A DNA stretch of 64,000 nucleotides from Alphaproteobacteria bacterium (GCA_044223515.1 JBGALV010000002.1:64015-128014); one strand, 5' to 3'. Numbered from the stretch's first letter, positions 1,168-20,551 are shown. The notes: generated by a model not told the origin, from the letters alone. Numbers and translations are program-made.

Positions 1168-1950
1168 TTGTCGATGTATCCCATCAGATATATCGCTAGC
1201 CTTCTGGCGGCTGCCTGGGTCGCGCTGGCAGTGCCAGCCACGGCTCGGGCTCAGTCCGACGTCGTGGTCTTCGCCGCCGCGAGCTTGAAGGACGCCCTTG
1301 ACGGCGTCGCCGCCAAGTGGACGAAGGAGACCGGCAAGAAGACGGCGATCTCCTATGCCGCGAGCTCGGCGCTCGCCCGCCAGATCGAGCAGGGCGCCCC
1401 GGCGCAGATCTTCATCTCGGCCGACCTCGACTGGATGGACTACGTCGCCAACAAGAACCTGATCAAGCCGGCGACCCGCAGCAACATCCTCGGTAATCGT
1501 ATCGTGCTGGTCGCACCGAAGACTTCGACCGCGGCGATCAAGATCGAGCCCAACTTCCAGCTCGCCGCGGCGCTCGGCGGCGGCCGCCTCGCGATCGCCG
1601 ACGTCAACGCGGTGCCGGCCGGGAAGTACGGCAAGGCCGCGCTGGAGAAGCTCGGCGTATGGAGCTCGGTCGAAAGCAAGGTCGCACAAGCCGAGAACGT
1701 GCGCGCCACCCTCCTCCTCGTCTCGCGCGGCGAGGCGCCGCTCGGCATCGTCTACCAGACCGACGCCGCCGCCGACCCGAACGTAAGGATCGTCGGAACC
1801 TTCCCCGAGGACACTCACCCGCCGATCATCTACCCTGTGGCCTTGACCGCGAACGCGAACAGTCCGGATGCCGAGGCATTCCTCGCCTATATGAAGTCGG
1901 CGAAGGCGCGGCCGCTGTTCGCGGCGCAAGGTTTCGCGGTCTTCGACTGA
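1168..1950 (+). CDS. modA: molybdate ABC transporter periplasmic substrate-binding protein
   Basis: Signal peptide, then DVVVFAAASLKDAL...FISADLDWMDY, which is typical of ModA. It is followed by modB and modC. Confidence 0.85.
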   Translation: MSMYPIRYIASLLAAAWVALAVPATARAQSDVVVFAAASLKDALDGVAAKWTKETGKKTAISYAASSALARQIEQGAPAQIFISADLDWMDYVANKNLIKPATRSNILGNRIVLVAPKTSTAAIKIEPNFQLAAALGGGRLAIADVNAVPAGKYGKAALEKLGVWSSVESKVAQAENVRATLLLVSRGEAPLGIVYQTDAAADPNVRIVGTFPEDTHPPIIYPVALTANANSPDAEAFLAYMKSAKARPLFAAQGFAVFD

Positions 1951-1954
1951 TCTC

Positions 1955-2656
1955 GTGACCTGGCTCGCCCTGACCCCGCAGGAGTGGACAGCCGTCCAAC
2001 TCAGCCTCAAGGTCGCCACCGTCGCCACGGTGACCAGCCTTCCGTTCGGGCTGCTGATCGCGCTTCTGCTTGCCCGCGGGCGGTTCTGGGGGAAGACGAT
2101 CCTGAACGGGCTCGTCCACCTGCCGCTGGTGCTGCCGCCGGTCGTCACCGGCTTCCTGCTGCTGGTCGTATTCGGACGGAAGGGCGTGGTCGGCGGCTTC
2201 CTCGCCGACCATCTCGGCATCGTCCTCTCGTTCCGCTGGACCGGTGCCGCGCTCGCCTCGGCAATCATGGGATTTCCGCTCATGGTCCGCTCGATCCGAC
2301 TTTCGATCGAGGCGGTGGATCGCCGGCTCGAGGCCGCCGCCTCGACGCTCGGCGCGAGCCCGGCCTGGGTCTTCGCGACCGTCACGCTACCCCTGATCCT
2401 GCCCGGCATCCTCGCCGGCATGATCCTGACCTTCGCCAAGGCGATGGGCGAGTTCGGTGCGACGATCACCTTCGTTTCCAACATTCCGGGCGAGACCCAG
2501 ACACTACCGGCGGCGATCTACACCTTCACCCAGGTGCCGAGCGGCGATGCCGGCGCCTTCCGGCTGACGCTGGTCTCCATCGTCATCGCGATGGCGGCGC
2601 TCGTCGCCTCCGAGTGGCTGGCCCAGCGGGTCGGCCGCCGGATCGGTCCCGAATGA
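1955..2656 (+). CDS. modB: molybdate ABC transporter permease
   Basis: Polytopic membrane protein with the ABC permease EAA-like loop (LGASPAWVFATVTLP). GTG start. Its stop overlaps the modC start (ATGA). Confidence 0.85.
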   Translation: MTWLALTPQEWTAVQLSLKVATVATVTSLPFGLLIALLLARGRFWGKTILNGLVHLPLVLPPVVTGFLLLVVFGRKGVVGGFLADHLGIVLSFRWTGAALASAIMGFPLMVRSIRLSIEAVDRRLEAAASTLGASPAWVFATVTLPLILPGILAGMILTFAKAMGEFGATITFVSNIPGETQTLPAAIYTFTQVPSGDAGAFRLTLVSIVIAMAALVASEWLAQRVGRRIGPE

Positions 2657-3777
2657 CGGTCGAGATCGACATCTCCCATCGCCTGGGGAAGTTCAGCCTC
2701 GATGTCCGCTTCTCGGCACCCGCCGGCCTCACCGCGCTGTTCGGGCCCTCGGGCTCAGGCAAGACGTCGCTCGTCAACATCATTGCCGGGCTGGTGCGGC
2801 CCGATCGCGGCCGTGTCGTCGTCGACGGAGAGGTCCTTGTCGACACTGAGAAATCGGTATTCCTGCCGCCGCATCGGCGCCGCATCGGCTACGTCTTCCA
2901 GGAAGGCCGCCTGTTCCCGCACATGACCGTGCGCCAGAACCTTCTCTACGGTCACTGGTTCGCCTCCGATGGTCGCCGCCGCGACCAGGATGTCGAGCGG
3001 GCGATCGATCTGCTCGGCATCGACGGCCTTCTGGACCGACGCCCCGGCCTCTTGTCCGGCGGAGAGAAGCAGCGGGTCGCGATCGGCCGCGCGCTCCTAT
3101 CCAATCCACGCATCGTGCTGATGGACGAGCCGCTCGCCTCGCTCGACGAGGCGCGGAAGGCCGAGATCCTTCCCTATATCGGAAAGCTTCGCGACCAGTC
3201 GCGGGTGCCGATCGTCTATGTCAGCCATTCGGTCGTCGAGGTTGCGCGGCTTGCGACCACGGTCGCTGTGCTTTCAGGCGGCCACATCACAAGTGTGGGG
3301 CCGACCGCCAGCGTGATGCAGAGCCTCGATCTCCTGCCCGCGACCGCGCGCGCCGAGGCCGGCTCCGTCCTGGAAACCCAGATCGAGGCCCACGATGAGC
3401 CCTACGGCCTGACCACGCTCCGTTCGCGGGCCGGACACTTCCGCGTGCCTCGCATCGAGCTTCCGGTCGGTGCCCCCGTACGTATCCGCGTGCGCTCCCG
3501 CGACGTGATCGTCGCGACCTCGGCCCCGCACGGCCTGAGCGCGATCAACGTGCTCGCCGGCACGATCGCCGAGATCCTGCCGCGCGGCGACACCGCCGCC
3601 GACATCCGCATCGACTGTTCCGGCGAGAGCGTGCTGGCACGCCTTACCCGCCGCTCAGTCGACACGCTCGGCCTCAAGCCGGGCCTGCCGGTCCATGCCG
3701 TGGTGAAGAGCGTCGCCTTCGACGGCGGCAGCCTCGGCGCGCCGCTCAGGGGCGCCGAGGCCGAGCTCGACGCCTAG
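2653..3777 (+). CDS. modC: molybdate ABC transporter ATP-binding protein with C-terminal TOBE domains
   Basis: Walker A GPSGSGKTS, signature LSGGEKQRVAIGRAL and Walker B LMDEPL. The ATG at 2653 is in frame within the longer 1984..3777 ORF. Confidence 0.85.
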   Translation: MTVEIDISHRLGKFSLDVRFSAPAGLTALFGPSGSGKTSLVNIIAGLVRPDRGRVVVDGEVLVDTEKSVFLPPHRRRIGYVFQEGRLFPHMTVRQNLLYGHWFASDGRRRDQDVERAIDLLGIDGLLDRRPGLLSGGEKQRVAIGRALLSNPRIVLMDEPLASLDEARKAEILPYIGKLRDQSRVPIVYVSHSVVEVARLATTVAVLSGGHITSVGPTASVMQSLDLLPATARAEAGSVLETQIEAHDEPYGLTTLRSRAGHFRVPRIELPVGAPVRIRVRSRDVIVATSAPHGLSAINVLAGTIAEILPRGDTAADIRIDCSGESVLARLTRRSVDTLGLKPGLPVHAVVKSVAFDGGSLGAPLRGAEAELDA

Positions 3778-4754
3778 GTTCGCTCGAGCGGACGGCCGGG
3801 GATCGACTGCACACCGTACTGCCGGTCCCAATCGTCCTGCGCCGCCTGCAGCACCCGCATCGCCGGCAACACCGAGGGACCGGAGGCGATCGGCTGGCGG
3901 CCCTCCTTGATCGCATCGAGGAAGTCGAAGATCACCCGCGCGCAATTGTCCTGCTCGCTCTCCATCGGTACCGTGCCGGCCTCGGTCTTCAGCGTGCCGG
4001 CAAGAATGTCGAAAAGGTAGGTATCCTTGTCGGTGACGATGACCTTGTCGTAGAGCCGGTAGGTCGCGTGATAGGAGCCGTGGACCATCAGCGTCTGATC
4101 GGCCTCGGTCTCGACGAGCAGCACGCACTCCATCGGAATGCCGGTCACTGGATGCAGCTTGCCGAGCGAGCTTTGCACGCGCTTCACCGGCGCGCCGTCG
4201 AACATGTACATGCCGAGATCGGCGAAGTGGCAGAAATGATGCCAAAGGATGTTGTCGATCCAGCTCCGCTTGTAGCCGGTGGCGCCGACGTTCACGAGGC
4301 GCTTGATGAAGAAGCGGCCGGCGATGTGACGGATCTTCTCCTCGCCTGACTTGAGGCGAGCACGCAGCGCGTCGCGTTCCCGGCGAAATCGCATCGGGTG
4401 GCAGAGGCCGTAGACCTTTCCGCTCTTCTCGCCTGCGGCGACCACGCGCTCGGCGCCCTTGAGGCTCATCGCGATCGGGATCTCGAGCAGCATGTGCTTC
4501 CCAGCCTCGAGGGTCTTGATCGCCTGCTCCTCATGCACCTCGCTGGGGCTTCCAACAATGACCGCGTCGATCGCCGGATCGGCCAGAGCCTCCTCCAGCG
4601 ACACCGTCCATTTCTTGTAGCCGTAGCGGTCGGCGAATTCCTTCGACGCGTCGGGACGACGGCCGACGACGGTGTGAAGCACGGCGTCGGTTCTCTTGAG
4701 CGCCTCCGAATGCCAGATGCCCATCATCCCGTAGCCGACCATGCAGATGTTCAT
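3774..4754 (-). CDS. Gfo/Idh/MocA family NAD(P)-dependent oxidoreductase
   Basis: N-terminus MNICMVGYGMMG (Rossmann fold). A GGAGGA RBS lies 6 nt upstream of the ATG at 4754. The longer ORF to 4790 lacks an RBS. Confidence 0.8.
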   Translation of the reverse strand: MNICMVGYGMMGIWHSEALKRTDAVLHTVVGRRPDASKEFADRYGYKKWTVSLEEALADPAIDAVIVGSPSEVHEEQAIKTLEAGKHMLLEIPIAMSLKGAERVVAAGEKSGKVYGLCHPMRFRRERDALRARLKSGEEKIRHIAGRFFIKRLVNVGATGYKRSWIDNILWHHFCHFADLGMYMFDGAPVKRVQSSLGKLHPVTGIPMECVLLVETEADQTLMVHGSYHATYRLYDKVIVTDKDTYLFDILAGTLKTEAGTVPMESEQDNCARVIFDFLDAIKEGRQPIASGPSVLPAMRVLQAAQDDWDRQYGVQSIPGRPLERT

Positions 4755-4840: not shown

Positions 4841-5980
4841 ATGAAGATCGAGCGGCTTCGAGCCTATATGTCGCGCGACAAGGACCGGCCACGGCTCCTG
4901 GTCGCGATCGACACCGACCAGGGCATCACCGGCTGGGGCGAGTGCTACAATCACGGGCCCGACAAGGCGCTGCCGCCGCTCCTCGACTACCTATTCACCT
5001 TCATCAAGGGCCGTGATCCCCGGCGGATCGAGTTCCTGATCCTCTACCTCTTGCAGCAGACACGCTTCCCGCCGGGCGCGCTCGGCCTTGCGGCGATCTC
5101 CGCGATCGACCATTGCCTCTGGGACATTTCGGCCAAAGCGCTCGGCGTACCCGTCTACATGCTGCTCGGCGGCAATGCCCGCGACCGGGTGCGGGTCTAT
5201 GCCGGCGTCTATACCGCTCCCGATCCGGTGGTCGCCCGAGACCAGCTCGACACGCTGAACGGCGAGTGGGGCTTCTCCGCCTTCAAGCTGAGCCCCTTCC
5301 GGATCGACCTGCATGCGCATCGCTGGGGCGAGGTGGTCCGCACCAGTGCCGAGTATTTCCGGAAGCTCCGCGAGACGGTGCGATCGGACTACGAGATCGC
5401 CTTCGACGCGCACGCCAAGATCTTCGAGCCGAAGCAGGCGATCCAGCTCGGCAATGCGCTCGCCCCCTACGATCCCATGTTCTTCGAGGAGCCGATCCGG
5501 CCTGAGAACATCGAGGCGATGGCCGAGGTGAAGCGCGACGTCGCCTGCACCGTCGCGACCGGCGAGTCGCTCTACAGCCGCTTCGAGTTCCTGAGGCTCC
5601 TCACCGTCAAGGGGGCCGACATCATCCAGCCGGACATCTGTGTCGTCGGCGGGCTGCTGGAGATGCGGAAGATCGCCGCGATCGCCGAGGCGCACTACGT
5701 GACCGTCGCCCCGCACAACCCGATGGGCCCGCTGGCGACTGCGGTCAACCTGCACTTCTCGGCGGCGCAGCCGAACTTCAGGATCCTCGAATACCGGCTG
5801 CCCGAGGAGGCGCCGTACGTGAAGGACCCGTACCTGCCCAAGGACGGCTATCTCGAGCTCCGCCCCGATCGACCCGGCTGGGGTGTCGAGATCGACGAGG
5901 AAGTCCTGAAGAAGGACGGCTACCTCCATTGGGAGCGGAAGGTACCCTTCCGCCCCGATGGATCGAGCGCTTACGTCTAA
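4841..5980 (+). CDS. enolase-superfamily (mandelate racemase/muconate lactonizing enzyme family) sugar-acid dehydratase-like protein
   Basis: MKIERL... start typical of MR/MLE. GWGE and ligand motifs (DAH..E..E) are spread as in D-galactonate/L-rhamnonate dehydratases. The alternative TTG at 4811 is less likely. Confidence 0.75.
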   Translation: MKIERLRAYMSRDKDRPRLLVAIDTDQGITGWGECYNHGPDKALPPLLDYLFTFIKGRDPRRIEFLILYLLQQTRFPPGALGLAAISAIDHCLWDISAKALGVPVYMLLGGNARDRVRVYAGVYTAPDPVVARDQLDTLNGEWGFSAFKLSPFRIDLHAHRWGEVVRTSAEYFRKLRETVRSDYEIAFDAHAKIFEPKQAIQLGNALAPYDPMFFEEPIRPENIEAMAEVKRDVACTVATGESLYSRFEFLRLLTVKGADIIQPDICVVGGLLEMRKIAAIAEAHYVTVAPHNPMGPLATAVNLHFSAAQPNFRILEYRLPEEAPYVKDPYLPKDGYLELRPDRPGWGVEIDEEVLKKDGYLHWERKVPFRPDGSSAYV

Positions 5981-5987
5981 CGTTCGT

Positions 5988-6150
5988 ATCCCCTCTCCCG
6001 CGTCGTACGCGGGGGAGGGTTAGGGTGGGGGCCGTCGCGAAGCGGCGGTAACCGCCATCACAGATCTCCATCTCCGCCACCCTCGCTTTCGCTCGGGCCC
6101 CACCCCATCCCTCCCCCGTCGCTACGCGCCGGGAGAGGGGGTGGAGAGAG
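5988..6150. repeat. Pair of GC-rich REP-like palindromic elements (CCCCTCTCCCGCG..CGCGGGGGAGGGTTAGGGTGGGG) in inverted orientation
   Basis: Element A is at ~5988-6031 and element B at ~6095-6150, which is its near reverse complement. Each folds into a hairpin, CCCTCTCCCGCG / CGCGGGGGAGGG. A related copy occurs at 54134-54176. Confidence 0.7.
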
Positions 6151-6156
6151 TCTTCG

Positions 6157-6951
6157 CTATCGCGCCTTCTTCGCCTTCGGCACCGCCGGCCGCATCGCCT
6201 CGATGCCGGTCTGCAGCGCGTGCTGCATCAGCCAGATGTCGCCCATATAGGCGATCATCCGGAAGCCCTTCTTGATCCAGGCCTTGCCCCAGGTCGGGTT
6301 GCCGACCAGGTTGCCGGCGATCTTGCCGTGACGACGGCACGCCGCGACCGTCGCGTCGCGCGCCTTCACGAACTCGGGGTGCTCGAACTCGAGCGGCCGG
6401 CCAAGCGAGACCGAGAGATCGGTGTGGCCGACGAAGGCGACGTCGATGCCCGGCACCGACATGATCTCGTCGACGTTCTGCACGCCCTTCTTGGTCTCGA
6501 TCTTGACCATGACCAGCACGCTCGAATTGGCTGCCTTCATGGTCTTGCGCGCATCGCCGATGATGTAGTCGTCGTGGGCGACGCCGAAGGCCGAGCCGCG
6601 GCGGCCATGCGGGGGATATCGGGTGGCGCGAACGATCGCCTCGGCCTGGGCCTTGGTCTCGACCACCGGGACCAGGATGCCCTTGGCGCCGAGGTCGAGC
6701 GATCGGGTGATCAGGTTGAAGTCGTCGCCGGCCGGATTGACCAGCGGCACAATGCCGGCGCCACGGGCGAACTGGATCTGGTTCTTGACCGTCTCGAAGC
6801 TCCAGCCCGAGTGCTCCATGTCGAAGATGATGTAGTCGCAGCCCGCCGACTTGGCGATCTTGGCCATGCCCGGAGACGCGAACTCGAACACGAAGGTCCC
6901 GAAAACCGTTTCGCCCCGGGTGAGCTTGGTCTTGAGCGGATTGTCGCGCAT
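6157..6951 (-). CDS. HpcH/HpaI family aldolase (2-keto-3-deoxy sugar acid aldolase-like)
   Basis: Sequence typical of the 2-dehydro-3-deoxy-aldonate aldolase family (..DYIIFDMEHSGWSFET...GILVPVVETKAQAE..). Confidence 0.8.
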   Translation of the reverse strand: MRDNPLKTKLTRGETVFGTFVFEFASPGMAKIAKSAGCDYIIFDMEHSGWSFETVKNQIQFARGAGIVPLVNPAGDDFNLITRSLDLGAKGILVPVVETKAQAEAIVRATRYPPHGRRGSAFGVAHDDYIIGDARKTMKAANSSVLVMVKIETKKGVQNVDEIMSVPGIDVAFVGHTDLSVSLGRPLEFEHPEFVKARDATVAACRRHGKIAGNLVGNPTWGKAWIKKGFRMIAYMGDIWLMQHALQTGIEAMRPAVPKAKKAR

Positions 6952-7031
6952 TGAATGTCCCCCTTCCCTGTTTCCGATCGGGAAAACTGTCTAAACTAGG
7001 GTTCCGTTCGAGCCGCGAGAGAGCAAGCGAA

Positions 7032-7937
7032 ATGGACAATTGCCGGGTCAAGGGCCAGCCGGTGCCCTCTTCCCTGATCCACGAGATGGTGGACAGCGCC
7101 TCCCTTCTCGACAACCCCGCGGCGCTTCGCGCACGACTGGCCGAGGACGGCTACCTGTTCCTCAAGGGCGTGGTCGACCGGGACGCTGTCATGGCCGCCC
7201 GCCGGGAAGTGTTCCAGCGCCTGGTCGCGGTCGGCGAGATCAAGGAGCCGGCGATCGACGGCATCGCCACCGGCGACAGCAAGCGAAAGGAGCTGGAACC
7301 AGACCTCGGCGCCTTCTGGCGCTCGGTCAGCGAGGGTAAAAATCTACGCGCCGCCAGCAACGGTCGCGACATGCAGCGAATCATGTCGCTGGTCTTCGGC
7401 GAACCCGCCCGCAACCAGGACTACATCTTCCTTCGCGCTGGCGCGCTCGGCCGCGCGACCGGGCTTCATTTCGACTATCCATTCTTCACGCGGGCGCACG
7501 ACAAGGTCTGCACCGTATGGATGCCGATCGGCGACGTGCCCGTCGAGGACGGTCCGGTGGTCGTGGTCGAGGGTTCGAACAAATACCGCGACCTGATCGA
7601 CCCGATGATCGGCTTCGATATCTCGACCGACAACTCGCGGAAAGCCGATTTCGGCGCCGACGCGATTTCCTTCGCACAGTCCCGCGGCACGCGGCTGCTC
7701 ACCCGGAACTTCGAGGCCGGCGATATCTGTCTGTTCGGCATGTATTTGGCGCACGGATCGCTCGACAACCACTCGCCGATCCATCGCGTCCGACTGTCCT
7801 GCGATCTCCGATGGCAACCGGCATCCCTGCCGCTCGACGATCGCTATTTTGGCGATCCGCCGAAGGGTACGACCGGCGCCAGCTACGGCGAGCTGAACGG
7901 TGCCAAGCCGCTGACCCAGGACTGGCACGTCCGGTGA
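7032..7937 (+). CDS. phytanoyl-CoA dioxygenase (PhyH) family Fe(II)/2-oxoglutarate oxygenase
   Basis: PhyH-family fold motifs (HFDYPFF ... HGSLDNHS..R). The ATG at 7032 is in frame in the 6951 ORF. The stop overlaps the next gene's GTG. Confidence 0.7.
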   Translation: MDNCRVKGQPVPSSLIHEMVDSASLLDNPAALRARLAEDGYLFLKGVVDRDAVMAARREVFQRLVAVGEIKEPAIDGIATGDSKRKELEPDLGAFWRSVSEGKNLRAASNGRDMQRIMSLVFGEPARNQDYIFLRAGALGRATGLHFDYPFFTRAHDKVCTVWMPIGDVPVEDGPVVVVEGSNKYRDLIDPMIGFDISTDNSRKADFGADAISFAQSRGTRLLTRNFEAGDICLFGMYLAHGSLDNHSPIHRVRLSCDLRWQPASLPLDDRYFGDPPKGTTGASYGELNGAKPLTQDWHVR

Positions 7938-9040
7938 CAGACGCGACGCAGCCAAAGCCTCGCGACAAGGACGCGATCCGCGCCCGCTGCACGCGCTTCC
8001 TGACACGCAGCAAGTCCCCGACGCCGAAGGAGATGCTGCAGGCGATCGCCGACGAGGTGGGATCCGAAGAGGCCGTCGACACCTACGGCAAAGGCAAGCT
8101 GATCGAGGATTTCGAGGCAGATGTCGCCTCCAGGCTCGGCAAGCCGGCGGCGGTGTTCATGCCGTCGGGCACGATGGTCCAGACGATCGCGCTCAGGCTC
8201 TGGTGCGACCGGACGGGCGTCAAGACCGTCGGCCTGCATCCCCTAAGCCACCTCGAGCGCAATGAATCCCAGTCCTACCGCGCGCTGCACGGGCTCGCCG
8301 CCGCCTATCTCGGCGACGACTCCCGGCAGTTCCGCCGGAAGGACGTCGAGGCGGTCGCCGAGAAGCTCGGCGTCGTCGTGCTCGAAATGCCGCTCCGGCC
8401 GCTCGGTTGCGCGCTGCTGCCCTGGGAAGAGGTCGCGGCGATCTCGGCGCTCGCCAAGGAGCGCGGAATCCCGTTCCACCTCGACGGCGCCCGGATATGG
8501 GAGAGCCAGCCTTACTACGGCCGGAGCCTGGCGGAAATCGCCGCGCTCTTCGACAGCGTCTACGTCTCCTTCTACAAGGGCCTCGCCGGTATCTCGGGCG
8601 CGGTGCTCGCGGGCCCGAAGGCGCTGATCGACGAAGCGCGGCTTTGGCAACATCGCTACGGCGGCCGATTGTTCCAGCTCTATCCCTACGTCCTCGCCGC
8701 GCGCAAAGGGCTCCGCGAAAGGCTGGACCTGATGCCGTCGTTCCATCGCGAAATCCGCCGCGTCGCCGATGCGATCCGTGACCTGCCCGGCGTCCAGGTG
8801 ACGCCTGATCCGCCGCAGGCGACATCGATGCACATCCAGCTCCCCGGTCCGCAGGAGAAGATCGAGGCGGCCTTCCTCGATCTCGCCGAGGAGACCGGCA
8901 TCTGGCTTCTCGACCGCGTGTTCGCGAGCTCGGTCCAGGGCGTATCGATGGCCGAACTCACCGCCGGCACCGGAACCCTCGATTTCACCTCCGAGGAGAT
9001 CCGCGCGCTGTTCCAGAAGCTGCTCGCCCGGATCGCCTGA
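7934..9040 (+). CDS. threonine aldolase-like PLP-dependent enzyme (beta-eliminating lyase family)
   Basis: The region KPAAVFMPSGTMVQTIALR matches the low-specificity threonine aldolase region AALFVPSGTMANQ. The 5' part of the 7517 ORF overlaps phyH out of frame. The start is tentatively GTG 7934, with ATG 8032 as the alternative. Confidence 0.65.
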   Translation: MTDATQPKPRDKDAIRARCTRFLTRSKSPTPKEMLQAIADEVGSEEAVDTYGKGKLIEDFEADVASRLGKPAAVFMPSGTMVQTIALRLWCDRTGVKTVGLHPLSHLERNESQSYRALHGLAAAYLGDDSRQFRRKDVEAVAEKLGVVVLEMPLRPLGCALLPWEEVAAISALAKERGIPFHLDGARIWESQPYYGRSLAEIAALFDSVYVSFYKGLAGISGAVLAGPKALIDEARLWQHRYGGRLFQLYPYVLAARKGLRERLDLMPSFHREIRRVADAIRDLPGVQVTPDPPQATSMHIQLPGPQEKIEAAFLDLAEETGIWLLDRVFASSVQGVSMAELTAGTGTLDFTSEEIRALFQKLLARIA

Positions 9041-10143
9041 TGCGCGTCGTCATCGTCGGAGCCGGCATCCTGGGATCCAGCACCGCCTATCATCTCGCCA
9101 AGGCCGGTGCCGAGGTCGTGGTCGTGGATGCCGTGCATCAGGGCAAGGCGACGCTGGCCGGCGCCGGGATCATCTGTCCCTGGGCCAGCAAGCTCGACCA
9201 GCCCGCCTGGCTCCGCCTCAGCCTCGCCGGCGCCCGGTACTATCCGGAGCTGGCAGCCGCTCTCGCGGCAGCCGGCGAGACGAACAACGGCTATCGCCGT
9301 GTCGGCGCCCTGATCACCTCGGAAGATCCGGCCGAGCTGGCTGCCGCCGAGCAGCGCATCCTTACCCGCCGCGAGAATGCGCCTGAAGCCGGTACGGTGC
9401 GGCGCCTCACCAATGCCGAGGCGCGGGTGCTGTTCCCGCCGTTCCGCGAGGACCTGCCGGCGATCCATATCGAGGGCGCGGCCCGGGTCGAGGCGCGCGC
9501 ATTTTCGGCCGCGTTGCTGAAGGTCGCGATGGCGCGAGGCGCCGTGCACCGGAACGAGCGCGCCAGCCTCCGCATCGAGAAGGATCGTGCGGTCTGCCTC
9601 GGCGCTGACGGCAAGCCGATCCAGGGCGATGTCGTCATCGTCACCGCCGGCGCCTGGGCGCATGAGGTCCTGGGGCCGCTGGGCGTGGACCTGAAGGTCG
9701 AGCCGCAAAAGGGCCAGATCCTTCACCTGGGCCTCGGCGGCATCGATACCAGCAACTGGCCGGTGCTGCTGCCGATGAACAGCTACTACATGCTGGCCTT
9801 CGACGACTCGCGCGTGGTCGTGGGTGCCACGCGCGAAACCGGATCGGGCTTCGACTATCGCATCACCGCCGGCGGCCAGAAGGAAGTGCTCGACTTCGGC
9901 CTCGCCTACGCGCCGGGCTTGAGGAACGCGACGCTGATCGAGACCCGCATCGGCTTCCGCCCGGCCGGCCCATCCTTCGTGCCGATGCTGGGGCCGGTCA
10001 AAGGCGTCGGCGGCCTTCTGGTCGGCAACGGCCTCGGCGCCGGCGGGCTGACGCTCGGACCGATCTCCGGACGCCTGCTCGCCGAGTGCGCACTCGGGCA
10101 GAAAACCGCGCTCGACCTCGCCGACTACGCCCCTCTGCTCTGA
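9040..10143 (+). CDS. FAD-dependent oxidoreductase (DAO / D-amino-acid oxidase-glycine oxidase family)
   Basis: N-terminal dinucleotide fold VVIVGAGILGSSTAYHLAKAG. The ATG overlaps the upstream stop (TGATG), so the two genes are coupled. Confidence 0.8.
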   Translation: MRVVIVGAGILGSSTAYHLAKAGAEVVVVDAVHQGKATLAGAGIICPWASKLDQPAWLRLSLAGARYYPELAAALAAAGETNNGYRRVGALITSEDPAELAAAEQRILTRRENAPEAGTVRRLTNAEARVLFPPFREDLPAIHIEGAARVEARAFSAALLKVAMARGAVHRNERASLRIEKDRAVCLGADGKPIQGDVVIVTAGAWAHEVLGPLGVDLKVEPQKGQILHLGLGGIDTSNWPVLLPMNSYYMLAFDDSRVVVGATRETGSGFDYRITAGGQKEVLDFGLAYAPGLRNATLIETRIGFRPAGPSFVPMLGPVKGVGGLLVGNGLGAGGLTLGPISGRLLAECALGQKTALDLADYAPLL

Positions 10144-11418
10144 CTACTGCATCAGGCGCGGCAGCCAGAGCACGAGCTCCGGCACGTAGGCGACCAGGAA
10201 GATCACCACCATCCAGATCGCCGTATACGGGAAGAGCATGCCGAGTGCCGAGTTGTAGCTGATCCCGGCTATCCGGCACGCCACCATCGCCAGCACCCCG
10301 ACCGGCGGCGTCACCGAGCCCACGACCAGCAGCATGATGACGACGATACCGAAATGCACCGGGTCGTATCCCAGGTGCCGGATCAGCGGCCCCATGATCG
10401 GAACGACGATGATCAGCGCCGGCACCGGCTCGAGGAAGGTCCCGAGCAGGAAGAAGAAGACGATGAGGATGGCCATCGCCAGCTTCGGGTTCTCGGTGAT
10501 CGAGAGCATCAGCTGCAGGGCCTGCTGGCCGACGCCGGCACGACTCAGGACCCAGCTGAACAGCGCGGCGCCGCCGAGCGTGATCAGCGCGCTCGCCGTC
10601 ACCTCCGCAGCCGAGGCGAAGTTGCGATAGAGCGAGCCGACCGTGTGCCGACGAGCGACGAGGCCGTAAATCAGCGCATAAAGCGCTGCGACACTGCCGG
10701 CTTCGGTCGGCGTGAACGCACCCGACAAGATGCCGCCGATGATGATGATCGGCATGAACATCGCGGGAATCGCACGCGTGGTCGCGCTGGTGACTTCGGA
10801 GAAGGAGGCCCGCGGGATCGTCCTGGCGCCGGCGCGCGGCGCCAAAAACCAAGTGACCGCCATCATCGAGACGCCGGCGATGACGCCGGGGATGGCGCCG
10901 CCAAGGAACAGAGCGCCGATCGACACGCCGGTCACCGAGCCGTAGATCACGGCGATGATGCTGGGCGGGATGATCGGCGCCATCATCGCGGCACAGGCCG
11001 TGACGGCGACCGCGAAGGCCGGCTTGTAACCTTCCTTCTTCATCGCCGGGATCATCATCGAGCCGATCGCGGCCAAGTCGGCCAGCGCCGAGCCCGAGAT
11101 CGCGGCCATGAACATGTTGGTCAGGATGTTCGCCTGGGCGAGGCCACCGCGCAGGTGGCCGATCATCGCCTTGGACATGCCGACCAGCCGCTCGGTGATG
11201 CCGGCAACGCTCATCAGCTCGCCGGCGAGGATGAAGAGCGGCACCGCCAGCAGCGAGAAATTGTCGAGAGAATCATAGAACTGCTGCGCCAGGATCAGCA
11301 CCGGCAGCTGCCCGTCAATCAGGATCACCAGGATGGCGGCGAAACCCATGCAGTAGGCGATGGGCATGCCCAGGCACATGAACACGAAGAACAGTGCCAG
11401 CATCAATCCGATGCTCAT
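10144..11418 (-). CDS. dctM: TRAP transporter large permease subunit
   Basis: MSIGLMLALFFVFMCLGMPIAYCMGF... is a classic DctM N-terminus. The ATG at 11418 overlaps the dctQ stop. The longer ORF to 11742 overlaps dctQ in another frame. Confidence 0.85.
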   Translation of the reverse strand: MSIGLMLALFFVFMCLGMPIAYCMGFAAILVILIDGQLPVLILAQQFYDSLDNFSLLAVPLFILAGELMSVAGITERLVGMSKAMIGHLRGGLAQANILTNMFMAAISGSALADLAAIGSMMIPAMKKEGYKPAFAVAVTACAAMMAPIIPPSIIAVIYGSVTGVSIGALFLGGAIPGVIAGVSMMAVTWFLAPRAGARTIPRASFSEVTSATTRAIPAMFMPIIIIGGILSGAFTPTEAGSVAALYALIYGLVARRHTVGSLYRNFASAAEVTASALITLGGAALFSWVLSRAGVGQQALQLMLSITENPKLAMAILIVFFFLLGTFLEPVPALIIVVPIMGPLIRHLGYDPVHFGIVVIMLLVVGSVTPPVGVLAMVACRIAGISYNSALGMLFPYTAIWMVVIFLVAYVPELVLWLPRLMQ

Positions 11419-11924
11419 AGCGTGCGATCCGTCGGTTCGCCGGTGGGATTGTGCTTCTGCCAGGTCATGACCATGAAGACCGCCTCGATCGCGGCACCCA
11501 CCGGAACCGCGAGATAGACCGAGTATTTCGGTACGTCGAGAAACGGCGAACGCTGGAACCAGGTGCGGTCGACCAGCTCGATGCCGGCCCAGAGAAGCGT
11601 CAGCAGGAACGCGAGGGTCAGGATATCGATCATCATCATGACGATACGCCGGCCGGCCGGTGCCAGCATGAGCTCCAGCACCTCGATCCGAATATGGGCG
11701 CGGCCTGCGGCGACCAGCGCCGAGCTCAGCATGACGCCCCAAAGCATGGCGCCGCGCACGAACTCCTCGGCCCAGAACAAGGACTCGTTCAGCACGTAGC
11801 GGAAAAAGACCTGCAGGAGCACGAGGCAGAAGTAAGAGAAAAGCAAGACGACCGACACGAATGTCAGGGCCGCCTTTATCTTGCCGAAGAACAATCCGTC
11901 TTCCGCGACTGATGATGCGTTCAT
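11415..11924 (-). CDS. dctQ: TRAP transporter small permease subunit
   Basis: 169 aa with 4 TM helices and DctQ-like length and topology. It sits directly upstream of dctM with an ATGA overlap. Confidence 0.8.
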   Translation of the reverse strand: MNASSVAEDGLFFGKIKAALTFVSVVLLFSYFCLVLLQVFFRYVLNESLFWAEEFVRGAMLWGVMLSSALVAAGRAHIRIEVLELMLAPAGRRIVMMMIDILTLAFLLTLLWAGIELVDRTWFQRSPFLDVPKYSVYLAVPVGAAIEAVFMVMTWQKHNPTGEPTDRTL

Positions 11925-11930
11925 CTAGGC

Positions 11931-11960
11931 CTCAAAAAAACACCCCCGGAAGGGCCGGGG
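11931..11960 (-). terminator. Intrinsic terminator/attenuator between dctP and dctQ
   Basis: Perfect 10-bp stem ACACCCCCGG-aaggg-CCGGGGGTGT, followed on the minus strand by TTTTTT. It lies 7 nt before the dctQ start. Confidence 0.65.
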
Positions 11961-11985
11961 GTGTCCGTTTCAACACACTGGAAGC

Positions 11986-12990
11986 TTACGCCTTGCCGGC
12001 GGCCTGGACCGCCTCGATGTAGGCCTTGGCCTTCGGGCCTGCCTTGGCGACGAAGCTGTCGACGACTGGCCCCATCTTGGAACGGAATGACGCGACATTC
12101 GGCGAGTCGTTGGCAGTCGCCTTGGTAGTCAGGTCCTTCCAGGCGTCGCCTTGCTCCTTGAGGTTCGCTTCCCACATGAACTTGCCGGTCGACTCCACCG
12201 CAGCGTCGCGGATGACCTTCTGCACGTTAGCCGGCAGCGCCGCCATCTTCTTGGCGCTCGACATCATCGAGACCTCGGTGAAGATGTGGTGCGTGCGGGT
12301 CACGAACTTCGCGACCTCGTACTGCTTGCCTGTCTGGACGAAATCTGCCGGCCCTTCGAAGGCATCGATCACGCCGGTCTGCAGCGCGGTGTAGATTTCG
12401 CCGGCCGGGATCGGCGTCGGGTTGGTACCCAGCGCGCGCGCCATGTCGACATAGACCGGAATCTCGGGCACGCGCAGCTTGATACCGCGCACGTCGTCGG
12501 CCGACTTGATCTCCTTCTTCGAGCAGAAGATGCGGAAGCCCGACGCGCCGAGTTGGAGGATCTCGATACCGAGGGTCGACTTCACGTCGCCGACGACCTG
12601 CTGGCCGACGGGCCCCTGCAGGATCTTCTTCACATGGTCGTAGTCGTTGAACAGGAAGGGCACGGAGGTGAAGCCGAACTGCGGCTGCCAGTTGGCGAGC
12701 GTGCCGAGGTCGGTCCAGCAGAAGTCGAGCGTGCCGAGCTGAAGGGCTTCGGCGGAAGTGCGCAGGTTGAAGAGCTGCGAGGCAGGCCGGATGTCGATCG
12801 CGTACTGACCGTTGGTCCCCTTGCTCACCAAGTCGGCGAACATTTCGGCCGTCTTGTGCGAGATATGGGTGGTCGGGACGTGGTGCGAGAAGACAAGCCG
12901 CACCGGTTGAGCTTGCGCGCGCGTCACGTACGGCATGGCCAAAACGCCTGCCGCGGCGCCGTAGCCTAGGACCTTTCGCCTGGTGATCAT
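11986..12990 (-). CDS. dctP: TRAP transporter substrate-binding protein (copy 1)
   Basis: Tat/Sec-like leader RRKVLGYGAAAGVLAMP, then VRLVFSHHVP..ALQLGTLD..NDYDH, the DctP family signature. Confidence 0.85.
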   Translation of the reverse strand: MITRRKVLGYGAAAGVLAMPYVTRAQAQPVRLVFSHHVPTTHISHKTAEMFADLVSKGTNGQYAIDIRPASQLFNLRTSAEALQLGTLDFCWTDLGTLANWQPQFGFTSVPFLFNDYDHVKKILQGPVGQQVVGDVKSTLGIEILQLGASGFRIFCSKKEIKSADDVRGIKLRVPEIPVYVDMARALGTNPTPIPAGEIYTALQTGVIDAFEGPADFVQTGKQYEVAKFVTRTHHIFTEVSMMSSAKKMAALPANVQKVIRDAAVESTGKFMWEANLKEQGDAWKDLTTKATANDSPNVASFRSKMGPVVDSFVAKAGPKAKAYIEAVQAAGKA

Positions 12991-13089
12991 GTCGTTTCCT
13001 CCGTGTTTGCGGCCGTATCCCGGCCTTTGATTTATTCCGGCCCTTCGCGCTCTCTCCGAGCGTCGAAGGGCCGCCTTTTTGTCCCTAGC

Positions 13090-14088
13090 TTACGCCGCCT
13101 TCTGCGTTGCCTCGATATATGCCTTTGCCTTCGGACCGGCCTTGGCGACGAAGTTGTCGAGCACGGGCCCCATCTTTGAGCGGAAGGACGCGATGTCGGG
13201 CGACGCGTTCGCCTTGACCTTGGTCGCCAGGAAATTCCAGGCGTCCTGCTGCTCCTTCAGGTTCGCCTCCCACATGTACTTCTGCACCTGCTCGACCGAG
13301 GCGTCGCGGATCGCCTTCTGCACGTTGGCCGGCAGCGTCGCCATCTTCTTGGCGCTGGCGAACATCGAGACTTCGGTGAAGATGTGGTGGGTCTTCGTCG
13401 CGAAGCCCGCAACCTCGTAGCTCCTGGCCGAGACGATGAAGTCGGCCGGCACCTCGATCGCATCGACGACGCCAGTCTGCAGCGCCGTGTAGATCTCGCC
13501 CGCAGGAATCGGCGTCGGATTGGCGCCGATCGCCTTCGCCATCTCGACCCAGGTCGGGATCTCGGGCACGCGCAGCTTGATGCCGCGGCAATCTTCCGCC
13601 TTGTCGATCTGCTTCTTGGAAAGGAAGACGCGGAAGCCCGAGGCCCCGAGCGACAGGGTCTCGATGCCGAGCGTGTCCTTGGTCTCCTTGGCGATCTGCT
13701 CGCCGATCGGCCCGTAGAGGACTTTCTTGATGTGGTCGTAGTCGTTGAACAGGAACGGCATCGAGACGAATCCGAACTGCGGCTGCCAGTTCGCGAGTGT
13801 GCCGAGATCGCTCCAGCACAGGTCGAGCGTTCCCAGCTGGAGCGCCTCGGCCGAGGTGCGGAGATTGAACAGCTGAGAGGCCGGCTTGATGTCGATCGTG
13901 ACCTGTCCGTTGGTCGCGTTCTTGACCTGCTCCGCCATCTTCTCGGCCACGCCGTGGATCAGGTGCGCCGTCGGAACATGGTGCGAGAACACCAGCCGGA
14001 TCGCCTGAGCGCGTGCTACATGCGGCATGGCCAGCACGCCCGCGGCCGCGCCGTAGCCCAAAAGTTTCCGCCTGGAAATCTTCGTCAT
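13090..14088 (-). CDS. dctP: TRAP transporter substrate-binding protein (copy 2, tandem paralog)
   Basis: About 70% identical to copy 1 over its full length. Shared blocks include LRTSAEALQLGTLD and GFxSxPFLFNDYDH. Confidence 0.85.
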   Translation of the reverse strand: MTKISRRKLLGYGAAAGVLAMPHVARAQAIRLVFSHHVPTAHLIHGVAEKMAEQVKNATNGQVTIDIKPASQLFNLRTSAEALQLGTLDLCWSDLGTLANWQPQFGFVSMPFLFNDYDHIKKVLYGPIGEQIAKETKDTLGIETLSLGASGFRVFLSKKQIDKAEDCRGIKLRVPEIPTWVEMAKAIGANPTPIPAGEIYTALQTGVVDAIEVPADFIVSARSYEVAGFATKTHHIFTEVSMFASAKKMATLPANVQKAIRDASVEQVQKYMWEANLKEQQDAWNFLATKVKANASPDIASFRSKMGPVLDNFVAKAGPKAKAYIEATQKAA

Positions 14089-14329
14089 CGACGTCTCCCC
14101 CTATGGCCTGAGCACGGCCGCTACAGTTGCGATAGCCGGTTTCTTGGATCGTTTCGGACCACGAAACCTTTCATTTATTTAAACTTAGTCTAGCGAGAGC
14201 CTGTCATTGAAGGCAAGCAACTCCGGCGCTAAACTGCAGCCGTATTTCTCATGGGTCGTCGTTCCGGAAATGTTACCGCTACCATAGCGGCATCGAGGCA
14301 GGCGCCGAGCGCCCAGCGGAGTCCAAGGC

Positions 14330-15232
14330 ATGATCAGCGACAAGGATGTCGAAACCTACAACAAGCGCGGCTACCTGGTCGTGCCGAACGTGCTGACCGA
14401 TGCCGAGGTCGCCGAACTCCGCCAGGTGACCGAAGAGTTCGTCGAGAAGTCGCGTGCCGTCAGCGAGCACACCGACATCTTCGACCTCGAGCCCGGCCAC
14501 ACCAAGGACTCGCCGAAGGTCCGCCGCATCAAGACCCCGCATGCCTGGCATCCGGTCTACGAGAAGATGGTCAAGCATCCGAAGATCCTTTCGGTGCTGC
14601 AGAAGCTGTGGGGACCGAGCATCCGCTTCGACGTTTCCAAGCTGAACCTCAAGTCCGCGGGCTTCGGCTCGCCGATCGAGTGGCACCAGGACTGGGCTTT
14701 CTATCCCCACACCAACGACGATCTCGCCGCCGTCGGCATCATGATCGACGATTTCAAGCCCGATAACGGCGCAATGATGGTGATCCCGGGAAGCCACAAG
14801 GGCCCAACCTACGACCACCACTCGAACGGCTATTTCGTCGGCGGCATCGACCCGTCGAAGTCGAACATCGACTTCTCGAAGGCTGTGCAGTGCCTGGGCA
14901 AGGCCGGATCGATCACCATCCATCACGTCCGCCTGCTGCATGCGTCGGCCGCCAACATCTCGGGCGAGCCGCGCCGCTTCCTGCTGCACCAGTACCGCAC
15001 TGCCGACGCGTGGCCGCTGATCTACAAGCCGGAGTCGTTCGAGAAGTGGGAGGCCATGCTGGTCTGCGGCGAAGAGACCGTGGCACCGCGGATGAAGGAG
15101 CTGCCCATCCGCCTCCCCTATCCGCCGGCACCGAACCAGGGCTCGATCTACGAGAACCAGCGCGACCTCGAGACCAAATTCTTCAAGACCGCCGAAGAGA
15201 TGGCGGAGAAGAAGCTCGAACCGGCGCAGTAA
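14330..15232 (+). CDS. phytanoyl-CoA dioxygenase (PhyH) family Fe(II)/2OG oxygenase (second copy)
   Basis: HxD...H facial triad context (WHQDWAFYPH ... SITIHHVRLLHAS). Distinct from the first PhyH, at about 25% identity. Confidence 0.75.
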   Translation: MISDKDVETYNKRGYLVVPNVLTDAEVAELRQVTEEFVEKSRAVSEHTDIFDLEPGHTKDSPKVRRIKTPHAWHPVYEKMVKHPKILSVLQKLWGPSIRFDVSKLNLKSAGFGSPIEWHQDWAFYPHTNDDLAAVGIMIDDFKPDNGAMMVIPGSHKGPTYDHHSNGYFVGGIDPSKSNIDFSKAVQCLGKAGSITIHHVRLLHASAANISGEPRRFLLHQYRTADAWPLIYKPESFEKWEAMLVCGEETVAPRMKELPIRLPYPPAPNQGSIYENQRDLETKFFKTAEEMAEKKLEPAQ

Positions 15233-15292: not shown

Positions 15293-15308
15293 CATGTCCG
15301 GAGTCTCC

Positions 15309-17719: not shown

Positions 17720-18586
17720 CTACTCCGCCGCCTTCGCCGCCCCCTGCTCCTCGGCCTCGATCCGCTTCCAGAGCGCGCGGACCATGTCCTTCATCATGAG
17801 GGCTTCCTGCCATCGGTCGGACAGATCCTCGTCGTTCCGGTCGACGATGGCGTATGGCCGCGGCCCCATCTCGCAAAGGAAGGTCAGCGTGCCGTCCTTC
17901 GGTGCACGTCGGCGCCAGGAACGGATGCCGTTTTCCCACCAGCCCATGAACAGGTCGACCCACGGCTTATGGTGCGGGAAGCTGATCGGAACCTGGATCT
18001 GTTCGCGGCTGGCGACGCGACCGTGGAAGCCCCAGCAATTGTCGAGGATCCGGTGCATCAGCTTGTGGTTCTCCTCGCTGATCGGCGGCCCGGCGAACTC
18101 GCGCCCGACAAGATAGTGGGAGATGTCGCCGGTCAGCTTCAGGTCCGGGAAGCAGTCGAGCAGATGCAGCGTGAAGAACAGGTCGGTCGTCATGCGGTCG
18201 CGATGCGTCTCGATGTGCATGCGCACGCCAGCCTCGTTCGCCAGCCGGCGCCACCCCTCGATATAGGGGATGCACTCCTCGATCCGATACGGCCGCACGT
18301 CCGGCTGCAGATTCAGGTGCTCGGCACCGAGCTTGGCGACGTTGTCGAGGATCGGCTTCAGGTCGTCGACCGTCTGCGGATAGCACTGCGCCTGCCAGGT
18401 GAGACCGTAGTCCTTGAGGATGGTCGTATGCGCCTTCGCCTGCTCGAAGTCGAAGAAGCGGACGCCGGCGCCGTCGAAGCCGGCGTCGCGGATCATCTTG
18501 AGCTTCTCTTCGAGCGTCCACTCCTTGCCGTCCGGAGCACGACGCTCCATCGCCCACATCGACTGGTAGACGAGCAGCTTCTGCAT
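17720..18586 (-). CDS. sugar phosphate isomerase/epimerase (xylose-isomerase-like TIM barrel) family protein
   Basis: 288 aa with the ..HIETHRDR../..DISHY.. metal-ligand pattern typical of the AP endonuclease 2 / xylose isomerase-like fold. Confidence 0.6.
   Translation of the reverse strand: MQKLLVYQSMWAMERRAPDGKEWTLEEKLKMIRDAGFDGAGVRFFDFEQAKAHTTILKDYGLTWQAQCYPQTVDDLKPILDNVAKLGAEHLNLQPDVRPYRIEECIPYIEGWRRLANEAGVRMHIETHRDRMTTDLFFTLHLLDCFPDLKLTGDISHYLVGREFAGPPISEENHKLMHRILDNCWGFHGRVASREQIQVPISFPHHKPWVDLFMGWWENGIRSWRRRAPKDGTLTFLCEMGPRPYAIVDRNDEDLSDRWQEALMMKDMVRALWKRIEAEEQGAAKAAE

Positions 18587-19441: not shown

Positions 19442-19442
<1 letters not shown>
18609..19442 (-). CDS. fghA: S-formylglutathione hydrolase (esterase D)
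   Basis: METISEQACFGGTQGFYKHESK..., the GHSMGGHGAL nucleophile elbow and 278 aa are classic for FrmB/FghA. The ATG overlaps the adhC stop (ATGA). Confidence 0.9.

Positions 19443-20551
<1,109 letters not shown>

Follow-up and report, generated by a model that had tools for sequence, protein, structure and literature searches.

When the gene of a dioxygenase overlaps the gene of an aldolase, we can ask: Does the first enzyme make the substrate of the second? The question is raised by three genes at positions 7032-10143 in a stretch of 64,000 nucleotides (nt) from an Alphaproteobacteria bacterium (GCA_044223515.1 JBGALV010000002.1:64015-128014). This whole stretch, with a G+C content of ~65%, is called here the window, and positions are counted from its start. 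The genes code a PhyH-family dioxygenase (PhyH1), a pyridoxal phosphate (PLP)-dependent lyase of the threonine-aldolase family (BEL) and an amine oxidase dependent on flavin adenine dinucleotide (FAD) and similar to IdaA (DAO). An earlier note on this DNA had read them as an operon with a hydroxylate-then-retro-aldol logic. We found that PhyH1-BEL-DAO is a genuine translationally coupled operon, maintained by selection, but derived. The island to which PhyH1 belongs is found widely among uncultured Alpha- and Betaproteobacteria, and the comparison of loci speaks rather against PhyH1 installing the hydroxyl used by BEL. Gene anatomy, overlaps, family membership, phylogenetic distribution and gene contexts were observed; from them we infer every chemical step and the substrate discussed below.

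The coupled operon and its distribution

The stop of PhyH1 and the start of BEL share 4 nt (GTGA), and the stop of BEL shares 1 nt with the start of DAO (TGATG). The NTGA overlap between PhyH1 and BEL is kept in 13/13 distinct BEL-carrying loci, where BEL identity is 65-94% and its start codon may be GTG, TTG or ATG. Since the overlap is kept while the start codon varies, the coupling exceeds chance and speaks for selection to translate PhyH1 and BEL together. At the BEL/DAO junction the closest relatives have TGATG, and others have a gap of 10-14 nt. A promoter/terminator scan found no terminator-like site inside PhyH1-BEL-DAO. Thus, the earlier description of a translationally coupled three-gene operon stands, and direct reading of the sequence reproduced exactly the coordinates and descriptions given there for the three genes. 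At the other end, the DAO stop (10141-10143) directly abuts the opposite-strand stop of DctM (10144-10146), a permease gene of the tripartite ATP-independent periplasmic (TRAP) type, with 0 intergenic bases between the two convergent operons. No terminator-like hairpin was seen between them; the consensus promoter scan of 6000-14400 gave no promoter-like site, and no convincing terminator either.

How are PhyH1 and its two partners distributed across taxa? The homologue search found 881 PhyH1 homologues, of which the best 120 clusters were 69-97% identical and nearly all 301 amino acids (aa) long. A scan of one genome per species gave 80 loci with PhyH1 relatives (L007-L086). The window proteins were mapped on all loci by tblastn, and a PhyH1 tree was built. 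All 80 genome loci belong to metagenome-assembled genomes, with no cultured isolate among them, and lakes (Baikal, Mendota, Lac Pavin, Loclat) are indicated by many of the isolate names. In the plasmid collection the best PhyH1 relative was only 35% identical.

BEL lies beside PhyH1 in 12 of the ~78 PhyH1 loci, all from one terminal monophyletic alphaproteobacterial clade whose PhyH1 is 77-97% identical to that of the window. Most of these 12 loci also have DAO; L003 and L013 lack it, and L087 has an HSP20 gene between BEL and DAO. This clade is nested in ~55 loci of Alpha- and Betaproteobacteria in which PhyH1 (59-77%) lies beside the same DctPQM genes and both BEL and DAO are missing. Across PhyH1 loci the TRAP genes share 57-98% identity. 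The PhyH1 protein has hardly changed between the two groups: 122 of its 301 positions are at least 95% conserved across BEL-plus and BEL-minus loci, and only L48V, H110N and V259L discriminate them, two of these being conservative. Because PhyH1 is nearly the same with and without BEL, its reaction is probably independent of an aldolase. The sole non-conservative clade-specific change, at residue 110 (7359-7361), is His in 35 BEL-less TRAP-linked proteins and Asn in 12/12 proteins of the BEL clade. A clade-specific shift of PhyH1 specificity after the gain of BEL was rejected, there being only three discriminating positions.

Between PhyH1 and DctM, BEL-less loci have a short-chain dehydrogenase/reductase (SDR; 28 loci), often with a D-2-hydroxyacid dehydrogenase (2-Hacid_dh; 17 loci). 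L003, where BEL occurs together with both dehydrogenases, looks like an intermediate state; in L013 and the window clade the two dehydrogenases have been lost. PhyH1-SDR adjacency is the deepest conserved pairing and reaches Planctomycetota, Rokubacteria and Acidobacteriota. In one betaproteobacterial subclade (L005, L006, L023, L025, L028, L029 and L031) the gene of an Mpo1-like membrane protein (PF06127, 2-hydroxy-fatty-acid dioxygenase-like; 7224-8671 in L005) stands by PhyH1. This gene shares 4 nt with the PhyH1 start in L005 and L006, and another open reading frame intervenes in some loci.

The three proteins and their relatives

PhyH1 matched PF05721 with 58.2 bits over residues 38-252 (cut-off 22). 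No other Pfam family was matched at E<=0.01, and TauD/TfdA (PF02668) was among the unmatched. The iron triad H146-x-D148...H241, assigned from motif and spacing without a metal-bound structure, is invariant in 20 homologues together with R252/R254, which would provide the basic residue for 2-oxoglutarate. The AlphaFold 2 model (pLDDT 80.7, pTM 0.84) has a double-stranded beta-helix fold, and its top Foldseek matches were PtlH, SnoN, FtmOx1 and KanJ. PtlH was the sole PDB sequence match (E 6e-11) and the best fold match (27% identity, Foldseek E 1e-17), while PhyH1 scored 59.5 bits with the PtlH model NF045813 (cut-off 550). KanJ matched at TM ~0.53, more weakly than PtlH or SnoN. The amino-acid hydroxylases EctD, GriE and proline hydroxylase H11 were also among the fold matches, EctD and H11 far down the list.

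As a check, the earlier note had named a phylogeny of PhyH1 against trimethyllysine hydroxylase (TMLH), EctD and proline or lysine hydroxylases. Family scores and the PDB search returned PhyH only, with PtlH nearest, and a relation to EctD went undetected: the ectoine hydroxylase equivalog TIGR02408 was not matched. PhyH1 as a relative of TMLH, which we take to be a TauD/TfdA family member, or of EctD was ruled out by these family scores.

The C-terminal tail of PhyH1 (residues 275-301; 7854-7937) is predicted disordered (pLDDT <50), yet it is highly conserved. Residues P277, G279, T280, T281, G282, Y285, E287, W298, H299 and R301 are invariant, BEL-less loci included. The tail may be a lid ordering upon substrate binding.

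BEL matched PF01212 (Beta_elim_lyase) with 125 bits (cut-off 27). Aligned to 3WGB and 9E97, it keeps the PLP lysine (SFYKG), the Asp and Arg of HLDGAR and the PLP-stacking His (LSHLE). The second active-site His (His125/126/128), which contacts the substrate hydroxyl in threonine aldolases, is Leu in BEL and Gln in 3PJ0/3LWS. This position lies within a motif, E-x-P-x-R (BEL residues ~148-156; 8370-8400), that does not vary across the subfamily, 3PJ0 and 3LWS included, and that stands in place of the N-T-H-N of canonical threonine aldolases. The extra Arg beside the lost-His position could indicate a different or additional acidic group on the BEL substrate. The closest structures, 3pj0 and 3lws (E ~1e-72), are structural-genomics entries, and no function for them or for Lmo0305 was found in the literature. 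Among NCBIfam models the best score was 117.7 bits for the GntG family (NF041359), under the cut-off of 230; the LtaE model NF007825 gave 68.6 bits, under the cut-off of 312.

To the BEL protein of the window, those linked to PhyH1 show at least 63% identity and all others at most 52%. The hydroxylase-aldolase module is not co-inherited: BEL is found in the 12 PhyH1 loci counted above, and none of the 79 metagenome loci of the wider BEL family has a PhyH-like open reading frame (three different PhyH queries). The same 79 loci lack an IdaA-like gene and show no recurring neighbour, since no Pfam family occurs in more than 4/111 immediate neighbours. Two long contigs with a wider-family BEL have unrelated contexts. 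The lack of a hydroxylase, of an IdaA-like gene and of a recurring neighbour suggests that BEL was recruited once, from a solitary gene.

DAO matched PF01266 with 182 bits (cut-off 27.9). All three proteins thus pass the cut-offs of their Pfam families, and the family labels proposed earlier were right. DAO aligns end to end with PDB 6PXS (residues 1-365, E 2e-136), on which no functional information was found in the literature, and it is 60% identical to a cluster that NCBI names iminodiacetate oxidase IdaA (Chelativorans). IdaA cleaves N-carboxymethyl secondary amines oxidatively to an amine and glyoxylate, and iminodiacetate to glycine and glyoxylate (PMC7312458). Homologues of this type (57-64% identity) are common in cultured Rhizobiales. 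Two that were inspected have Dpp-type binding proteins, RidA and gamma-glutamyl transpeptidases as neighbours, with peptide- or opine-type ABC transporters; such neighbourhoods fit amine/imine chemistry, as expected. The earlier note had suggested glycine or D-amino acid oxidation by DAO. Membership in the DAO family is correct and amine or glycine oxidation is reasonable, but the score with the glycine oxidase ThiO model TIGR02352 (173.5 bits) lies under the cut-off of 250.8 and the protein is IdaA-like.

The transporter, the neighbouring genes and the sugar-acid context

The TRAP genes with two binding proteins that the earlier note had placed beside the operon are indeed there, at 10144-14088(-) (Table 1). 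DctPa and DctPb are paralogues with 74% identity and TIGR00787 scores of 214 and 204 bits (cut-off 175). The DctPb type is kept in all TRAP-linked PhyH1 loci with 67-78% identity in the tblastn map. The best solved relative of DctPa is SiaP (E 6e-41). Near either DctP protein, solved structures gave only ~30%-level matches (SiaP and various EFI uronate-/aldonate-binding proteins), from which the ligand is not inferable.

Table 1. Genes of the window around PhyH1, with coordinates, strand and the matches that support each assignment.
Feature	Coordinates	Strand	Description and evidence
Gfo/Idh/MocA-family oxidoreductase	3774-4754	-	PF01408 + PF19858
MR1	4841-5980	+	Enolase-superfamily, acid-sugar-dehydratase-like enzyme; PDB 4jn7 E 3e-197; galactonate dehydratase model 260 bits (cut-off 311)
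HpcH/HpaI-family class II pyruvate aldolase	6157-6951	-	PF03328 126 bits; divergent from PhyH1, 80-nt spacer
PhyH1	7032-7937	+	ATG to TGA, 301 aa; Fe(II)/2-oxoglutarate dioxygenase of PhyH family; PF05721 58 bits
BEL	7934-9040	+	GTG to TGA, 368 aa; PLP-dependent threonine-aldolase-family lyase; PF01212 125 bits
DAO	9040-10143	+	ATG to TGA, 367 aa; FAD amine oxidase, IdaA-like; PF01266 182 bits
DctM	10144-11418	-	TRAP large permease; PF06808 383 bits; TIGR00786 375 bits (cut-off 268)
DctQ	11415-11924	-	TRAP small permease; PF04290 95 bits
DctPa	11986-12990	-	TRAP solute-binding protein; PF03480 256 bits
DctPb	13090-14088	-	TRAP solute-binding protein; PF03480 246 bits
PhyH2	14330-15232	+	Second PhyH-family dioxygenase, 300 aa; PF05721 128 bits; present in 19 related loci
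MR2	15294-16553	+	Enolase-superfamily enzyme downstream of PhyH2; PF13378/PF02746; best PDB 1rvk/4hcd E 2e-43
Xylose-isomerase-like TIM-barrel protein (family f9)	17720-18586	-	68% identical to the L015 gene overlapping PhyH2 by 4 nt
FghA	18609-~19439 (start approximate)	-	S-formylglutathione hydrolase; TIGR02821 455 bits (cut-off 282)
FrmA	19442-20566	-	S-(hydroxymethyl)glutathione dehydrogenase, first of frmA-fghA-TIM string; TIGR02818 623 bits (cut-off 544)

What does PhyH1 do where BEL is missing? An example is L015, with a PhyH1 76% identical to that of the window. Here PhyH1 closes the operon MR-SDR-ABM-PhyH1, in which MR scores as an L-rhamnonate dehydratase equivalog with 792 bits (cut-off 393). 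SDR, 2-Hacid_dh and DctMQP are found in a second, convergent operon. A third, divergent operon has PhyH2, the xylose-isomerase-like TIM barrel overlapping it, an HpcH aldolase and an SDR similar to KduD/gluconate-5-dehydrogenase. RhmD-like genes were found in 13 PhyH1 loci and the f9 TIM-barrel gene in 15, the window among them; in betaproteobacterial loci the f9 gene lies between PhyH2 and HpcH, and in L015 and L051 it is part of the PhyH2 operon. No aminotransferase, deaminase or amine oxidase was found in BEL-less clusters. With sugar-acid enzymes present and nitrogen-handling enzymes lacking, the BEL-less islands are, by their gene content, islands of sugar-acid and not of amino-acid catabolism.

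The second element of context is formaldehyde. In the window frmA, fghA and the TIM-barrel gene form a string on the same strand, with a gap of 22 nt between the last two, and this string also follows the island in L013 and L017. Betaproteobacterial L051 has the order PhyH2-frmA-TIM, and in L086 a 52%-identical PhyH1 homologue heads a row of PhyH1-like gene, unknown gene, frmA and fghA, spaced by <=30 nt. Genes of glutathione-dependent formaldehyde oxidation are thus linked to PhyH/TIM genes in three independent arrangements, window included. Among 83 fetched loci (1.15 Mb) frmA occurs in 4, against ~0.3 copies expected by chance, which is our rough estimate for one copy per 4 Mb genome. This linkage points to oxidative dealkylation. 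O-demethylation of a sugar hydroxyl is known for two enzymes of the PhyH family, FJS and PHYHD1, from a paper that includes a formaldehyde assay (PMC12709175). Given this precedent and the linkage, the reactions of PhyH1 and PhyH2 would be explained most economically by oxidative dealkylation. The literature gave no support for the candidate substrates 4-O-methylglucuronate, O-carboxyalkyl rhamnose, 2-amino-2,6-dideoxy-hexonates and N-methyl amino acids. Also nearby in L003 are soxBDAG and the gene of a glutathione-dependent formaldehyde-activating enzyme.

PhyH2 has PDB matches to EvdO2 (E 2.5e-18), EctD (1.6e-13) and PHYHD1 (6e-6), and scored 74 bits with the EctD model TIGR02408 (cut-off 336.5). 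EvdO2 acts on sugar residues in orthosomycin biosynthesis. The pair PhyH2-MR2 is kept in the BEL clade, also in L003 and L087. MR2 falls under every NCBIfam cut-off, and the HpcH/HpaI aldolase of the window is under the cut-offs of the HpaI, KDR-aldolase and GarL models. The window copy of the f9 TIM-barrel protein matched nothing in Pfam; PF01261 was matched weakly by the f9 orthologue of L051 and by a gene of L087 that is its counterpart in position. MR1 is nearly identical in profile to PDB 4JN7/4JN8 and is flanked by the Gfo/Idh/MocA oxidoreductase and the HpcH aldolase; no function of 4JN7 was found in the literature. No aldehyde dehydrogenase for the predicted aldehyde was identified among the flanking genes scanned (~80-26900).

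The window begins inside the gene of a DgaE-like PLP enzyme of the D-glucosaminate-6-phosphate ammonia-lyase family, 82-1125 (+). In the close relative L001 (8-4273) genes of a third PhyH (277 aa), an SDR and an MFS transporter come before it, which gives one more set of dioxygenase, SDR and PLP lyase. Genes of a molybdate-type ABC transporter follow in the window at 1168-3777 (+), coding a ModA-like binding protein, a permease and an ATPase with a TOBE domain. In the window, L001, L009, L013, L014 and L017 such genes separate the upstream PhyH/SDR/MFS/DgaE-like set from the island.

Readings of the operon and known systems

Our leading reading, which we hold tentatively, makes PhyH1 the conserved oxygenase at the entry of an undescribed pathway linked to the TRAP transporter, with BEL and DAO as a lineage-specific amino-acid-handling branch of it. 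PhyH1 would most likely hydroxylate the imported carboxylate or an early derivative. If the hydroxylated carbon stands beside a heteroatom, as the context suggests, an alkyl or methyl group would leave as an aldehyde (formaldehyde). Most lineages would then process the product by sugar-acid chemistry, with SDR and 2-hydroxyacid dehydrogenases, a dehydratase of the enolase superfamily and the HpcH aldolase. In the window clade the stand-alone threonine-aldolase-family gene BEL was recruited directly behind PhyH1, and in most clade members the IdaA-like amine oxidase occupies the place of the two dehydrogenases. BEL most likely splits an intermediate of the alpha-amino-beta-hydroxy acid type into glycine (or N-substituted glycine) and an aldehyde, and DAO then most likely oxidises the amine to glyoxylate.

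Where would the amino-acid substrate of BEL come from? An attractive candidate would be a 2-amino-2-deoxy-aldonate, the amino analogue of the sugar-acid substrate and itself a beta-hydroxy-alpha-amino acid. The DgaE-like ammonia-lyase with PhyH, SDR and MFS upstream in the BEL clade points toward such a source. We can also propose, as a possible but doubtful fuller version, that the two PhyH dioxygenases dealkylate (e.g., O- or N-demethylate) a TRAP-imported alkylated sugar acid with release of formaldehyde, that one alphaproteobacterial clade added the PLP aldolase and the IdaA-like oxidase for an amino-acid-type intermediate such as 2-amino-2-deoxy-aldonate, and that the pathway is widespread in uncultured freshwater and soil bacteria.

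Several observations weigh against the entry-oxygenase reading. A 4-nt coupling as tight as that of PhyH1 and BEL is what is expected of consecutive steps. If the imported compound is free of nitrogen, as BEL-less clusters suggest, the ancestral island, which shows no nitrogen chemistry, offers no evident source for the amino-acid substrate of BEL. BEL has no second active-site His, so its aldolase activity is itself deduced. The genes frmA and fghA have housekeeping roles, and their adjacency recurs in no more than 5/84 loci. Finally, distant PhyH1 homologues (48-58% identical; Planctomycetota, Rokubacteria, Acidobacteriota) stand in other contexts. These are heterogeneous (UxaE with a zinc alcohol dehydrogenase, a Dpp-type ABC transporter, a pyrroloquinoline quinone propeller with formate-tetrahydrofolate ligase) and were not used for inference.

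The first of these points leads to the logic of the earlier note, which ranks second but which we consider unlikely. Here PhyH1 would beta-hydroxylate a TRAP-imported alpha-amino acid, BEL would cleave the product to glycine and an aldehyde, and DAO would convert glycine to glyoxylate; in BEL-less loci the SDR would oxidise the same product, a choice like that between threonine dehydrogenase and threonine aldolase. Persistence of the 4-nt overlap in 13 loci despite a varying start codon is its strongest point. BEL and DAO fill the slot of SDR and 2-Hacid_dh, BEL retains the PLP residues of aldolases, the DAO family contains glycine oxidases, and the PhyH family contains hydroxylases of free amino acids (EctD, GriE and H11 as fold matches); the logic also has precedents. 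However, an unchanged PhyH1 exists in ~55 loci without BEL or DAO, and these hold sugar-acid enzymes with no nitrogen-handling enzyme. The nearest PhyH1 structure, PtlH, is no amino-acid hydroxylase, DAO is IdaA-like and below the ThiO cut-off, the scanned flanks gave no aldehyde dehydrogenase, and the 79 loci of the wider BEL family gave no hydroxylase partner. Of this logic, BEL and DAO as a retro-aldol step followed by amine or glycine oxidation remain reasonable; PhyH1 as an amino-acid beta-hydroxylase feeding BEL is disfavoured by distribution, unchanged sequence, sugar-acid and formaldehyde contexts and nearest relatives.

It may also be asked whether the operon is one of convenience, with an ordinary threonine/glycine-to-glyoxylate pair, BEL and DAO, inserted behind PhyH1 and sharing only its transcription. 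The solitary nature of the wider BEL family and the dispensability of DAO (absent from L003 and L013, split off by HSP20 in L087) are consistent with this, and short gene overlaps are common in compact high-GC operons. We regard it as improbable, because the overlap persists across 65-94% BEL identity, the dehydrogenases were lost in step with the gain of BEL and DAO, and PhyH1-linked BEL proteins are distinct (at least 63%, with a sharp drop to 52%), suggesting specialisation after recruitment.

Quite improbable, too, is a reaction like that of KanJ/KanK, in which PhyH1 hydroxylates the amine-bearing carbon of an amino (sugar) acid to give ammonia and a ketone that the SDR reduces, while BEL and DAO of the window clade remove nitrogen otherwise. 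It would account for BEL-less clusters needing no further nitrogen enzyme and for the depth of the PhyH1-SDR pairing, down to Planctomycetota, Rokubacteria and Acidobacteriota; KanJ is a fold match (TM ~0.53), and the DgaE-like ammonia-lyase with PhyH, SDR and MFS stands just upstream in the BEL clade. But the KanJ match is weaker than those of PtlH and SnoN, the formaldehyde link is left unexplained and an amino sugar acid lacks direct evidence. Capture of the aldehyde is very improbable: BEL would condense formaldehyde (or glyoxylate) freed by PhyH1 dealkylation with glycine to serine (or beta-hydroxyaspartate), with the glycine supplied by DAO from an N-substituted glycine, in the way that IdaA acts on iminodiacetate, and although the recurrent frmA/fghA linkage, the glycine and glyoxylate formed by IdaA and the invariant Arg of E-x-P-x-R, which could bind a second acid group, agree with it, the scheme is purely inferential, threonine-aldolase equilibria favour cleavage, frmA and fghA already detoxify, and BEL-less lineages dispense with the step.

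All of the families in the island are known and the hydroxylate-then-cleave logic has precedents; the combination is new. It joins two PhyH dioxygenases, a TRAP transporter and sugar-acid enzymes with a recurrent link to formaldehyde oxidation, and has an aldolase/amine-oxidase variant in one clade. No characterised counterpart of the island or of this variant was found. In the collections searched the island is known only from metagenome-assembled genomes, many from lakes by isolate name, and it may mark a common component of dissolved organic matter eaten by these bacteria. The case would give a first physiological context to the 3PJ0/3LWS aldolase subfamily, to IdaA-like oxidases outside EDTA degraders and to the PhyH1 clade. 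For experiments on the pathway, the ligand of DctPa and DctPb offers a direct starting point.

Among known systems, the non-phosphorylative L-rhamnose/L-rhamnonate pathway (RhmD or LRA3, an HpcH-type KDR aldolase, SDRs) has enzyme types also present in betaproteobacterial PhyH1 operons. In contrast to that pathway, the enolase-superfamily enzymes of the window itself are not RhmD orthologues, and we know of no Fe/2-oxoglutarate dioxygenase in the L-rhamnonate pathway. The 2'-O-methyl-nucleoside demethylases PHYHD1 and FJS are PhyH-family Fe/2-oxoglutarate dioxygenases, and their removal of an O-methyl group matches the link to formaldehyde detoxification seen in the island. However, they act on nucleosides and not on TRAP-imported carboxylates, and PHYHD1 is only a weak match of PhyH2. 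PtlH, the 1-deoxypentalenic acid 11-beta-hydroxylase, is the nearest solved structure to PhyH1 and hydroxylates an unactivated carbon of a terpenoid carboxylic acid, but it works in terpenoid antibiotic biosynthesis, a context unlike that of PhyH1.

The low-specificity threonine aldolases LtaE, 1JG8 and 3WGB have fold, Pfam family, PLP lysine, HxDGAR and stacking His in common with BEL, but identity is just ~25-30% and their second His is absent from BEL. GntG performs a PLP-dependent retro-aldol step, like that proposed for BEL, in guanitoxin biosynthesis (10.1101/2023.03.21.533663). It sits in a cyanotoxin cluster, whereas the context of BEL is catabolic and its score is well under the GntG cut-off. 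IdaA of Chelativorans sp. BNC1 (PDB 6PXS) is similar to DAO over the full length, but lies in a cluster for degradation of ethylenediaminetetraacetate (EDTA) and nitrilotriacetate (EmoA/EmoB) with an ABC importer, whereas the partners of DAO are PhyH, aldolase and TRAP genes.

The carnitine pathway, with which the earlier note had compared the operon, is like GntG a real precedent. In it TMLH carries out Fe/2-oxoglutarate beta-hydroxylation, and a PLP-dependent aldolase (HTMLA) then gives glycine and an aldehyde by retro-aldol cleavage, the logic proposed for PhyH1 and BEL; HTMLA activity comes from enzymes of threonine-aldolase or serine hydroxymethyltransferase type (PMC8085414, PMC11016064). 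But carnitine synthesis is anabolic, eukaryotic and without a gene cluster, and PhyH1 exists unchanged without any aldolase.

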